DNA of 47,669 bases from an uncultured bacterium. GTDB lineage: Bacteria; Patescibacteriota; Microgenomatia; UBA1400; PJMF01. Position 1 is the stretch's first letter, and each line of letters begins with the position of its first letter. The position numbers were made by a program, and so were the translations under genes. Under the pieces are notes generated by a model. The model ran no database searches and was not told the origin of the DNA. It saw only the letters and a program-made list of their open reading frames with translations. Positions 2,514-46,761 of this stretch are shown piece by piece. Location: the NCBI GenBank assembly GCA_963544615.1, contig CAUUGB010000002.1, positions 1 through 47,669 of the forward strand, read 5' to 3'.

Positions 2514-2542
2514 ACATTGCCTAGAGTATAATCGAAGACAGA

Positions 2543-3538
2543 GTGAAAAAAGTAGTCGTTATTGGTGGTGGTACTGGCACGGCAACAGTGCTGAGTTCTT
2601 TGGTAGGGGACGAAGAGTTAAGTTTAACAGGAATTGTTTCTATTGCCGATTCTGGTGGCTCTACTGGTAGACTACGTGATGAATTTGGTTTTATTCCGGT
2701 GGGTGATGTCAGGCAGTGTTTGGGAGCTTTGGCAGTGGGAGAAAATAGTAATTTGGTCAGAGAACTTTTGCTTTATCGGTTTCCTCAACAATCAAGTTTG
2801 GTAGGTCATAATTTGGGTAACTTAATTTTAACTGCTTTAACTGATTTATATCAAACTCCAGGTAAAGCTATTGAGGTAGCCAGCAAAATTCTTCGCCTCA
2901 AAGGGCAAGTTTTTCCCATTTCACAAACTCCAGCCGATTTAGTAATTGAATATAGCGATGGGAGCATGGTGGTGGGTGAAGATTATTTAAATTACCACCA
3001 GCATGGCGGCAAACAAATTAAGCGCATTAGTTTAAAGCAAAAACCAGCTATTTATCAGCGTGCCAAACAAGCTATTTTAGCTGCGGATTTAATTATTTTT
3101 GGACCGGGAGATTTGTATGCTAGTTTGCTACCTAATACCTTAGTGAGAGGTTTTAAGCCCACTTTGCGCCGGTCAGTGGCAACTTATGTTTATATTGCTA
3201 ATTTAATGACCAATTACGCTCAAACTCACTTAATGACTGCTCGTGACCATTTGCAAGAAGTCATTACTTATTCTGGGAGAGTGCCAGATTGGGTAGTCAT
3301 TAATCAGCAACCGATTAAAAATCAGCGCTTGGTTGCCAGTTACCAGCAGCAAGGTTCTAGTCCTTTAGTAGATGATTTGAGTTTTTTACCCTTTAAGATT
3401 AAAGTGTGTCGTGCCAATTTACTTGCTGCTACTCTAGCAGCGCAAAATAAAAATGATCAACTGGAGCGTAATTATTTGCGTCACCACGCTAAAAATTTAC
3501 ATCGAGTGATTAAAAATATTCTCAATGAAAAAAAGTAA
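2543..3538 (+). CDS. YvcK/CofD-family protein (UPF0052, gluconeogenesis factor-like)
   Basis: N-terminal VVVIGGGTGTATVL glycine loop and the SIADSGGSTGRLR motif typical of the CofD/YvcK family. GTG start 10 nt after TATAAT (2527..2532). Confidence 0.85.
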   Translation: MKKVVVIGGGTGTATVLSSLVGDEELSLTGIVSIADSGGSTGRLRDEFGFIPVGDVRQCLGALAVGENSNLVRELLLYRFPQQSSLVGHNLGNLILTALTDLYQTPGKAIEVASKILRLKGQVFPISQTPADLVIEYSDGSMVVGEDYLNYHQHGGKQIKRISLKQKPAIYQRAKQAILAADLIIFGPGDLYASLLPNTLVRGFKPTLRRSVATYVYIANLMTNYAQTHLMTARDHLQEVITYSGRVPDWVVINQQPIKNQRLVASYQQQGSSPLVDDLSFLPFKIKVCRANLLAATLAAQNKNDQLERNYLRHHAKNLHRVIKNILNEKK

Positions 3539-4250
3539 AATAATTAAACCAGCTTGGCGAGAACTTGTTTTTTTTAATGCTAATGCAAATGAACTCAATT
3601 TTGCCGCGAAAAAAGACAGTGGTTTTTTATTAACCCAAACTCTAGATTTGGCGCAGTCAGCTGGGGTGGAAAGTTTAATTTTTATCTCTCATCCTGAAGC
3701 CACTAGTTTCAAAAAAAAGCTGCGTCTTTTAGCAGTGCATTATCCGCTACGGATAGTCACTCACCCTTGGCAAACTGCCTACGATGTGTGGGGTAATTTA
3801 GAAAGCATTAGCGGGGAGCTGAGTTATACTTGGGTACTGAGTCCCTGGCCTAATTGGCAGTTCGCTTATCAATTTGCCCAACTGAGTGCCTTTGCTGCTC
3901 CAGTGGTTTTAGCAGCTGCTGCTACTTATCATCCCAAGTGGTGGTTTACTGGTAATTGGCTGACACTGGAGAAAACATATGTCAAAAAAGTAACTTGGCT
4001 ACCTGAAAGAGGACTTTACCCAGTTTTGCCGATAGCCAAATATTCGCTAGACTTTAATAAATTTGGCTTAAAGCGTTTGGTTGCTGGTGAAAAATTAGCC
4101 ACAGTTTTAACTGCTTTTGCCAAAGATAATTTGCTTAAAGCAGTTATTTTTGAAAAAAGCAGTCAACAAATTTTGTTTACCCAAAAGAATTACTATCAAG
4201 CAAGTTTAGCCCAAATTCAACTTGCCTGGGCAAATTTGTCGCCAAAATAA
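3525..4250 (+). CDS. hypothetical protein, translationally coupled to the yvcK-like gene
   Basis: Its ATG overlaps the upstream gene by 14 nt. There is only a faint resemblance to a nucleotidyltransferase-fold N-terminus (KIIKPA..., LDLAQSAGVESLIFIS), with no glycine-rich loop. Confidence 0.55.
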   Translation: MKKSKIIKPAWRELVFFNANANELNFAAKKDSGFLLTQTLDLAQSAGVESLIFISHPEATSFKKKLRLLAVHYPLRIVTHPWQTAYDVWGNLESISGELSYTWVLSPWPNWQFAYQFAQLSAFAAPVVLAAAATYHPKWWFTGNWLTLEKTYVKKVTWLPERGLYPVLPIAKYSLDFNKFGLKRLVAGEKLATVLTAFAKDNLLKAVIFEKSSQQILFTQKNYYQASLAQIQLAWANLSPK

Positions 4251-4343
4251 TTAAGCCGATAATTTTAAATATTATTACCATTTTCTCCTTCTTTGTGGTA
4301 AAATAACTCCTAAAGCTCTCTAAAATCAAAGGAGGAGAAAAAC

Positions 4344-44694: not shown

Positions 44695-45897
44695 ATGATA
44701 GACAAGCGTTATTATTTTGATATTGGCGGCACGCCACTCTCAGCCGCCGCACGCCAAGCCGTAGAGAAAGTTTTATTAAATGATTATGCTAATCCCGAAG
44801 CTTTGCATGAACCTGGACAAAAAGCCAATGGCATCCTAAATTTAGCACGCCAAAAGTTGGCTAAGTTAATTAATGCTCCCTTAGGTGAAGAAATTATTTT
44901 TACCTCTGGAGCCACTGAAAGTGACAATTTGGCCATTAAAGGGGTGGCGCTACAACATTATTTAGCTACTCAAGGTAAATTAAGCAAGCCTCACTTGTTA
45001 ATATCCTCTATTGAACATGCTGCCATTCGCCAAAGCGCTCTCAGCTTAGAAGGTTTTGGTTTTCAAGTAGAATTTATTCCTGTCAGCGCTAAAGGGATGA
45101 TTGAGCCAGATGTAGTGGCACAATTAATCAAACCTACCACCTTGCTAGTTTCGGTAATGGCTGGCAATAATCAATTTGGCACTATTCAAGATATTGCAGC
45201 CATTGGGCAAATTACCAGTAATAAAGGTGTTTATTTTCACACTGACGCTTCGGTATTTTTTGGAGTTTATCCCCTAGATGTCCAAAAAGCTCATTTAGAT
45301 TTAGCCACAATTTCTTCGGCTAAAATTTATGGTCCTAAAGGAGTAGCAGCACTCTATTGTCGCCATGGGGTGCCTTTATACCCACTTTTTCATGGCGGAC
45401 ATCAAGAAGCAGGCAAGCGAGCTGGAACTCACAATTTACCAGCTATTGTTGGTTTTGTTACTGCGGCAGAAAAATCGCTGCAAAATCGCCAACAGCGCTT
45501 AGCTCATGACCAACAACTTTCAGAGTATTTTATTAACCAAGTAAAAAAAACCATCCCCTATGTGCTAGTTAATGGCGACAGCAAAAAACGACTAGTGGGC
45601 AATGTGCACTTATCAGTTTTGGGCGCTGAGGGCGAATCATTAGTTTTAGGTTTAGCTAGCTATGGCATTGCTGCCACCACTGGATCGGCTTGCTCGTCTA
45701 AAAGCCTTCAAGCTGACCCTGCCCTGAAAGCTTTGGGACTGACTCCAGAATTAGTGCATGGGAGTTTGCGTTTTTTTTGGCACCCTTGGCACACTCAAAA
45801 AGATTTAGATTATTTGCTGGATAAACTAAAAATTGTTATTACCAAATTGCGGCAGATTTCTGCTTATAAACCAAAGGAGAGCGATGTCAAAAAATAA
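44695..45897 (+). CDS. nifS: NifS/IscS-type cysteine desulfurase
   Basis: Class V aminotransferase with PLP-lysine region SSAKIYGPKGVAALY and active-site loop GSACSS. TATAAT lies 6 nt upstream of the ATG. Confidence 0.9.
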   Translation: MIDKRYYFDIGGTPLSAAARQAVEKVLLNDYANPEALHEPGQKANGILNLARQKLAKLINAPLGEEIIFTSGATESDNLAIKGVALQHYLATQGKLSKPHLLISSIEHAAIRQSALSLEGFGFQVEFIPVSAKGMIEPDVVAQLIKPTTLLVSVMAGNNQFGTIQDIAAIGQITSNKGVYFHTDASVFFGVYPLDVQKAHLDLATISSAKIYGPKGVAALYCRHGVPLYPLFHGGHQEAGKRAGTHNLPAIVGFVTAAEKSLQNRQQRLAHDQQLSEYFINQVKKTIPYVLVNGDSKKRLVGNVHLSVLGAEGESLVLGLASYGIAATTGSACSSKSLQADPALKALGLTPELVHGSLRFFWHPWHTQKDLDYLLDKLKIVITKLRQISAYKPKESDVKK

Positions 45898-46411
45898 ATC
45901 ATCCCCAAATTCACTCCCGGGAATGCTAGAATCATTTTATACTCAAGAGGTGATGCAGCATTTTTTGCACCCCAATCATGCTGGTGTGTTAACTGATTAT
46001 GATGTTTGCGGCGAGGTGGGTAATGTGGTTTGTGGTGATGTGATGCGCATTTACTTAAAAATTGAACCAGATGAAAAAAATCAACCTTGCATTGCTAATA
46101 TTTCTTTTGAAACTTATGGTTGCGGAGCTGCCATTGCCACCAGTAGTGTTGCTTGTGAACTCGCTTTAGGAAAAACCTTAACCCAAGCGCTAGAATTAAC
46201 TAAAGAGAGCGTGATTAAAGTTTTGCGTCGCTTGCCAGTACAAAAAATTCATTGCTCAATTTTAGCGATTGACGCTCTAAATGAAGCAATATACCAATAT
46301 TATGAACAAAACCAGCTCCCCATACCGCCAAAACTGGCTCAAACTCATCAACATCTAGCTAAACAAAAAGAAATTCTCAAAAAACAATATCAAAAATGGA
46401 TGAAAGCTTAA
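45884..46411 (+). CDS. nifU: NifU/IscU-like Fe-S scaffold
   Basis: Three conserved Cys contexts (VVCGDVM, YGCGAAIATSS, KIHCSILA). The ATG at 45884 is preferred over the track's 45833 because AGGAG lies upstream. It overlaps the nifS stop by 14 nt. Confidence 0.9.
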   Translation: MSKNKSSPNSLPGMLESFYTQEVMQHFLHPNHAGVLTDYDVCGEVGNVVCGDVMRIYLKIEPDEKNQPCIANISFETYGCGAAIATSSVACELALGKTLTQALELTKESVIKVLRRLPVQKIHCSILAIDALNEAIYQYYEQNQLPIPPKLAQTHQHLAKQKEILKKQYQKWMKA

Positions 46412-46644
46412 GGGCTAATAATCTCCTGAGATTGTTCACTCCCTTGTGGCAGGTACACCACCTTAACTGGCATCATAAAAGTATAAATCCACAAAAAAAT
46501 CAACAGCAAACCCAAAATACCTGCCATCATAATTAAAAAACCTAATACCTGGCAAAGATGAGTATTCACCACCACCTTACAGGTGGGCTGACTGGCTCGC
46601 TTAACATTTTTTTGCAAAATTTTTCTCTTGGCTTTTTGTTTCAT
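46408..46644 (-). CDS. small membrane protein (hypothetical)
   Basis: 78 aa with a basic N-terminus and one long hydrophobic segment. TGcTAAAAT lies 6 nt upstream of the ATG. Confidence 0.45.
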   Translation of the reverse strand: MKQKAKRKILQKNVKRASQPTCKVVVNTHLCQVLGFLIMMAGILGLLLIFLWIYTFMMPVKVVYLPQGSEQSQEIISP

Positions 46645-46761
46645 GCCTTCATTTTAGCATAATTATTTTTCGCAAGCAATAAGGCGTCTATCACTGCAAT
46701 TTTATCCCAGCAAAAGCCTCAGACAATCACCAGATCTCACCATCACCCTAATTAAAGTCAA

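Follow-up and report, generated by a model that had tools for sequence, protein, structure and literature searches.

The locus described here raises the question of how translation is begun on genes whose promoter lies so close to the start codon that no Shine-Dalgarno (SD) sequence can fit between the two. The window, by which we mean the whole 47,669-nt stretch analysed (contig C2, CAUUGB010000002.1), belongs to the 826,616-bp genome of an uncultured bacterium of the phylum Patescibacteria, also referred to as the candidate phyla radiation (CPR). The assembly comprises 43 contigs, has a GC content of about 40% and is 95.6% complete. The best matches to its ProS protein show 55–69% identity and all come from Patescibacteria/CPR metagenome-assembled genomes (MAGs). 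Probe and primer signatures of TM7 (Saccharibacteria) do not fit its 16S rRNA gene, so that membership in the Saccharimonadia is improbable. An initial annotation of the window had listed 11 genes with a -10 hexamer 6–7 nt from the start codon, together with two near misses, and had read these as pervasive leaderless mRNAs. The coordinates and gaps of all 13 hexamer/start pairs proved exact. The present analysis confirms the observation and supports the leaderless interpretation, which we regard as very probably correct on the basis of the genomic patterns set out below.

Spacing between -10 hexamers and start codons

Counted without any gene calls, the genome contains the pattern TATAAT-N6-ATG at 61 places, of which 58 open a reading frame of at least 80 aa. 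Other gaps between TATAAT and ATG give about 10 occurrences each, with gaps 7 and 8 also raised. For all further counts, genes were taken from a home-made set of 712 non-overlapping long open reading frames (ORFs), and a -10-like hexamer was defined by at least five of six matches to the consensus, with A2 and T6 required. Within this set, such hexamers are found at gaps 6, 7, 8 and 9 in 87, 42, 38 and 23 cases, respectively, over a background of about 12, giving a sharp peak at 6–8 nt in the genome-wide plot of -10-to-start distance. The same peak was looked for at internal in-frame ATGs of the genome-wide ORF set, and none was seen.

To keep the choice of start blind to the motif, the most upstream ATG was used for 697 long ORFs. 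A hexamer stands at gap 6–8 in 134 of these, compared to 21.6 ± 4.5 in 300 dinucleotide shuffles (z = 24.7) and to 30–37 in neighbouring gap classes. Exact TATAAT at gap 6 is observed 44 times and in shuffles 0.9 times. The enrichment over shuffled upstream regions that the initial annotation had called for is therefore present. Overall, a leaderless-type start was assigned to 211 of the 712 long ORFs. An internal control window gave 32 of 660, which puts the chance rate at about 5%.

Base composition could conceivably produce such a pattern by chance, as the genome is AT-rich (40% GC) and TA-rich hexamers are common in its intergenic DNA. The shuffles and the neighbouring gap classes speak against this, as does a reversed-pattern control, which occurs 8 times compared to 61 for the pattern itself. 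In addition, a relative with 49% GC shows the same peak, and many equally AT-rich Patescibacteria show no excess. We consider a compositional origin to be extremely improbable.

Identity of the hexamers as promoters

The hexamers are supported as genuine sigma-70 promoters, rather than AT-rich translation signals, by features that were not used in site selection, namely TGn, the -35 element and operon position. A TG at -15/-14, the mark of a TGn extended -10, is found at 37.6% of sites but at 4.4% of the equivalent hexamers inside genes that served as control, and G occupies -14 at 57% of leaderless-type sites. The initial annotation had remarked on TGn at several of its sites; it is present at six of the 13 (those of starts 17256, 7056, 22138, 24357, 46644 and 33759), including all four with a non-consensus hexamer, TAAAAT or TATGAT (7056, 22138, 24357 and 46644). 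A TTG lies 16–18 nt upstream, as expected of a -35 element, at 23% of sites and 8% of controls, and a -35 score of at least 5 is reached by 10% and 2.2%, respectively.

The layout also depends strongly on gene context, being found at 42% of divergent genes, 41% of co-directional genes 26–100 nt apart, and 14% of close-packed co-directional genes. Among first-in-unit-type genes it was seen in 171 of 452 (38%, or about 33% after subtraction of 5% for chance, using our own crude gene calls). The term ‘pervasive’ here stands for some 30% of genes and 35–40% of first-in-unit genes, and not for most. Sorted by start codon, the gap-6 peak comprises 86 ATG and 23 GTG starts, and there is no genome-wide spacing peak for TTG, CTG, ATT, ATC or ATA starts. 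Restriction of the peak to ATG and GTG fits a purine transcription start combined with a 5'-terminal AUG or GUG.

An alternative view sees in TAnAAT no promoter but an AT-rich signal for ribosome binding or enhancement, unrelated to the SD and placed within a longer 5' untranslated region (UTR), as in group B of the GeneMarkS-2 scheme (for example Bacteroidota), where the motif is expected before first-in-unit and internal genes alike, in leadered mRNAs (PMC6028130). This would agree with the low overall SD usage, with the presence of bS1, a binder of AU-rich leaders that here has four S1 domains, and with the occurrence of the motif at 14% of close-packed internal genes. We do not see the equal use that this view predicts, however, as the motif is three times commoner at first-in-unit genes. 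It also coincides with the sigma-70 -10 consensus, is placed after strong terminators, goes with ATG and GTG starts and not with TTG, and is accompanied by TGn (38% vs 4%) and by TTG at 16–18 nt, neither of which has a role in translation. A translational element of this kind is in our estimation very unlikely.

Credibility of the start codons

The start codons next to these promoters are credible, since alignments of the encoded proteins reach close to their N-termini. Pfam matches begin at residues 4–9 for CoaE, CofD, the class-V aminotransferase starting at 44695, and Acyl_transf_3. Alignments of ProS homologues begin no later than query residue 7, and the closest start codons of these homologues are for the most part within a few codons of the predicted proS start; these loci, from distant CPR MAGs, back the proS start but are too distant for a test of promoter conservation. 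Among the leaderless-type starts of the genome, the median distance from the preceding in-frame stop is 7 codons, and 118 of the 211 have no upstream in-frame start candidate.

These data bear on a second rival explanation, in which genuine promoters stand next to an ATG or GTG that is not used for translation, the true starts lying downstream on ordinary leadered transcripts. Room for such an arrangement is left by the 93 of 211 starts that do have an upstream in-frame candidate and by the existence of downstream candidates. Against this, a fixed 6-nt spacing to an ORF-opening ATG or GTG would not persist if that codon were unused, the Pfam and homologue alignments stop only a few residues short of the predicted N-termini, and most cases in the window have no SD before the next downstream candidate. 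We judge this explanation to be very improbable.

Two further sequence features were considered as marks of leaderless starts and rejected. The first 40 nt after leaderless-type starts have less stable folds than 40-mers of internal sequence (p = 1e-8), but low 5' structure is common to all gene starts, and an AAA second codon is likewise not specific. The proposal that fixed spacing could be used to correct start-codon calls is sound as an idea, although GeneMarkS-2 already implements it (PMC6028130).

SD-led and possibly coupled initiation

The 16S rRNA gene ends in ...GGATCACCTCCTTTCT, an intact anti-SD, and the genome encodes bS1, bS21 and IF3. SD matches of at least 5 nt near the 5' candidate start were detected in 33% of ORFs compared to 15% in the control, a net 18–20%, and about half of genes carry neither the leaderless layout nor an SD. 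The seven genes of the window that had been named as SD-led were each found to have their SD: gene 4344 (AAAGGAGG), efp (start 35800, minus strand; AAGGA), the MFP gene (11630; AAGGA), xer (36741; AGAGGT), nifU (45884; AAGGAG), gene 12584 (AGGAAAG) and rpoB (37458, plus strand; GAAGGGA). To these we add rpoC (40932; AAGGAG). With the anti-SD intact and this SD-led subset beside the leaderless-type genes, the claim that two modes of initiation coexist is borne out.

Two of these genes provide a useful contrast to the leaderless layout. In rpoB (37291..37460, plus strand), the promoter TTGACT-17-TATAAT (37291-37319) is separated from ATG 37458 by a leader of about 130 nt, which includes a hairpin plus T-run at 37378-37393 that may attenuate transcription ahead of rpoBC. 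In efp (35798..35853, minus strand), TTCACA-16-TAGAAT is followed by a leader of about 20 nt with the SD AAGGA before ATG 35800. The promoters of the window whose -35 and -10 elements are near consensus are those of the leadered genes 12584, xer, 36856 and rpoB. Elsewhere in the genome, none of 11 translation and chaperone genes checked has the leaderless layout, and most have an SD leader. Clear SD leaders precede the genes for DnaK, GroEL, S1, S10, S21 and IF3, often with TGnTATAAT 25–70 nt upstream.

The IF3 gene (contig C5:4354-4608, minus strand) has a TGaTATAAT promoter and an AAAGGAAA SD upstream, and it appears to start at a codon other than ATG, perhaps GTG. In other bacteria, IF3 genes are known to use unusual start codons for autoregulation.

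In close-packed gene pairs, the predominant overlaps are those of 4 nt (28 cases) and 1 nt (12 cases). Many operon-internal genes with neither signal overlap the upstream stop codon in this way, which suggests translational coupling.

Conservation among relatives and across the phylum

Among relatives from the same family and order, 17 of 20 show TATAAT-N6-ATG at no less than twice the level of the reversed-pattern control. Gap histograms, each made from 400 kb of genome, peak at 6–9 nt with TGn in both a same-family (36% GC) and a same-order (49% GC) genome. In a sample of the phylum, all five same-class genomes are enriched at least 3-fold. By hand count, 38 of 150 sampled Patescibacteria have at least 20 matches and at least three times the control, and many others have no excess; counts of the exact hexamer underestimate GC-rich genomes. 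The spacing peak is thus patchy across the phylum Patescibacteria.

SufS homologues from the relatives have a -10 element at 6–8 nt from the aligned start in 9 of 20 cases. Even species representatives of the same family are distant, with SufS identities of 30–59%. Leaderless status is shared with a same-family homologue in 31% vs 6% of genes (p = 5.5e-4), and the initiation style persists while individual leaderless genes change.

Leaderless-type sites in the window

On the plus strand, TATAAT lies 7 nt before the ATG of an M48 peptidase gene (4910..5812; site 4897..4912), just downstream of a terminator at 4845-4867. A 6-nt gap separates TATAAT from the ATG of a glucosaminidase-domain gene (15191..15907; site 15179..15193), which is divergent from a tRNA gene, and from that of an acyltransferase-3 gene (16158..17240; site 16146..16160), which has a terminator upstream at 16027-16046. 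The same gap is found between TGcTATAAT and the ATG of proS (17256..18653; site 17244..17258), where the promoter and the 3' end of the gene before it overlap, and between TATAAT and the GTG of a DUF4012 gene (24505..26703; site 24493..24507), which has TTGCAT as -35 element 17 nt upstream and forms a divergent pair with the gene starting at 24357. Two further plus-strand sites with TATAAT and a 6-nt gap precede the ATGs of coaE (34056..34664; site 34044..34058), for which the Pfam match begins at residue 4, and of a class-V aminotransferase (NifS/IscS-like) gene (44695..45897; site 44683..44697), the rpoC terminator (44624-44652) lying just upstream of the latter promoter. The near miss on this strand, with a 10-nt gap between TATAAT and the GTG of a CofD-family gene (2543..3538; site 2527..2545), would be expected to give a leader of about 3–4 nt.

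On the minus strand, a 6-nt gap is found between TGtTAAAAT and the ATG of a 415-aa gene with no Pfam match (5809..7056; site 7054..7068), where the -35 element is TTGCCT with a 17-nt spacer, and between TGcTAAAAT and the ATG of a 293-aa gene with no Pfam match (21257..22138; site 22136..22150). It recurs between TGaTATGAT and the ATG of a cysteine desulfurase (SufS-like) gene (23137..24357; site 24355..24369), and between TGcTAAAAT and the ATG of a 78-aa hydrophobic ORF (46408..46644; site 46642..46656). The near miss here combines TTGACG-16-TGaTATAAT with a 9-nt gap to the ATG of a glutaredoxin-like gene (33289..33759; site 33757..33774), for which a leader of about 2–3 nt is expected.

All sites in the initial annotation are right, but two minus-strand cases had been missed. 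One is TAAAAT with a 6-nt gap to GTG 12458 of a 219-aa ORF (11799..12458; site 12456..12470). In the other (29624..29645), TGcTATAAT precedes two codons of gene 28076..29629, TTG 29629 by 10 nt and ATG 29626 by 13 nt, and a very short leader is probable. Strong terminators immediately precede the promoters at 4897, 16146 and 44683 and indicate that these genes head their own units, as had been assumed for the whole set. The description fits proS (17256) less well, as it follows 15 nt after the preceding gene and is first-in-unit only by having its own promoter.

Other features of the window

A candidate small RNA of about 80 nt was noted at 15942-16056 on the plus strand, with a perfect TTGACA-16-TGtTATAAT promoter (15942-15969) followed by two hairpins, the second of which is the intrinsic terminator at 16027-16046. 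Its minimum free energy is -33.5 kcal/mol (z = -4.3), and no Rfam match was found even at E ≤ 1. A homologue in another genus of the family has 78% identity with compensatory stem changes, and a weaker one is found in a third genus; the remaining genomes of a 120-genome class sample gave no match. The loop carries an anti-SD-like CUCCUCAC. A role for the RNA (15976-16056) as an SD-sequestering regulator was rejected, since octamers complementary to the loop are too frequent in the genome and the loop sequence is absent from the third member.

The window has two class-V aminotransferase (cysteine desulfurase-like) genes, at 23137-24357 on the minus strand and from 44695 on the plus strand, and a third paralogue lies on contig C5. 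The gene at 44695 is followed by a NifU-like gene (region 44695-46411, plus strand), whose SD-led start is probably ATG 45884. Two long minus-strand ORFs, 29681..31072 and 30894..32297, share 179 nt that they read in different frames; the overlap could be genuine, or it could stem from a frameshift or a mis-called start. The minus-strand ORF 46762-47667 runs off the contig end and has a low-complexity N-terminus of repeated N/S/T/E/A/P-rich units.

Discussion

In the reading we favour, the hexamers would be -10 elements for the housekeeping (sigma-70-type) sigma factor, often of the extended form TGnTAnAAT and with a weak -35. Extended -10 (TGn) promoters are described in E. coli and Gram-positive bacteria, where the TG offsets a weak or absent -35. 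The sites reported here resemble them in having TG one base upstream of the -10, but differ in that the promoter keeps a fixed distance to the start codon. Because the hexamer ends 6 nt before the start, the usual +1, 7 nt after the hexamer, coincides with the A or G of the start codon, and RNA polymerase would begin on this purine or 1–3 nt before it. A transcript that begins at the start codon has no 5' UTR and therefore no room for an SD. By analogy with Actinobacteria and Deinococcus, the ribosome together with initiator tRNA would recognise the 5'-terminal AUG or GUG. The leaderless layout would serve about a third of transcription units, mostly ordinary housekeeping genes and genes of unknown function. 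A second set of genes, including rpoB, rpoC, efp, dnaK, groEL and those for S1, S10, S21 and IF3, has leaders of 20–130 nt with an SD that matches the anti-SD. The mode of initiation may be linked to expression level. A third large class is formed by operon-internal genes with neither signal, many of which overlap the upstream stop by 4 or 1 nt and may be translated by coupling.

Several points weigh against this reading. The transcription start sites are predicted from sequence, and an offset of a few nucleotides would give a 1–4-nt leader, which should still be functionally leaderless. The -35 element is weak at most sites, and a generic promoter scan of the window, which was used for individual promoters and terminators alone, did not rise above its shuffles. 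Our gene set relies on our own long-ORF calls, with about 5% of ORFs qualifying by chance; probable false leaderless calls in the window are 45950 (nifU) and 32297. The association of SD leaders with high expression comes from about 14 hand-picked genes. Finally, leaderless status of individual genes is poorly kept at the order level (26% vs 16%, not significant).

The closest known counterpart is group C of GeneMarkS-2, in which a Pribnow box lies 6–8 nt from first-in-operon starts and 25–50% of operons are predicted to be leaderless (PMC6028130). This group is represented mainly by Actinobacteria, most of which belong to it (for instance Mycobacterium, Corynebacterium and Streptomyces), and by Deinococcus-Thermus (Lomsadze et al. 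2018, PMC6028130). The present genome is similar in that the box stands at 6–8 nt of first-in-operon genes, about a third of units are of the leaderless type, other genes have an SD-type ribosome-binding site at a similar distance, the anti-SD is intact, and both ATG and GTG are used. It differs in being a 0.83-Mb, 40%-GC genome of the Patescibacteria/CPR rather than that of a high-GC actinobacterium or Deinococcus. The -10 element is also near the full TATAAT consensus, often with TGn, whereas mycobacterial -10 boxes are closer to TANNNT.

Within the phylum, a subgroup of Parcubacteria has lost the anti-SD, and some CPR bacteria have a shorter bS1 (Tsurumaki et al. 2022, PMC9297842); leaderless mRNAs are not discussed in that study. 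Our genome shares the phylum, the reduced ribosome and the low SD usage with these Parcubacteria, but it keeps the full anti-SD and clear SD-led genes. The retention of both indicates that the leaderless mode adds to SD initiation and does not replace it. A full-text search of the literature, which did not extend to the TM7x transcription start site work (PMID 35975994) or to the supplementary tables of GeneMarkS-2, where CPR may be listed as group C, brought up no account of leaderless transcription in CPR. What we describe is a known mechanism in a new lineage, and the mechanism itself is not new.

A broader and more speculative reading, which we hold to be possible but doubtful, is that Patescibacteria have by default, and since long ago, initiated without leaders from extended -10 promoters, a habit that would be class-wide, perhaps ancestral to the phylum and tied to their reduced ribosome, with SD leaders reserved for highly expressed translation and chaperone genes wherever the anti-SD is kept. 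If this were true, the trait would be held in common with Actinobacteria and Deinococcus and could inform the position of CPR within the Terrabacteria, and SD-based gene finders would systematically miscall starts in CPR MAGs.

For this lineage, the -10-to-start spacing offers a strong signal by which start codons and transcription units can be called at little cost. In thousands of CPR MAGs this affects operon maps, the calling of small ORFs and the annotation of N-terminal signal peptides. The organism combines a reduced ribosome with an intact SD machinery, and leaderless, SD-led and coupled initiation appear in it side by side.

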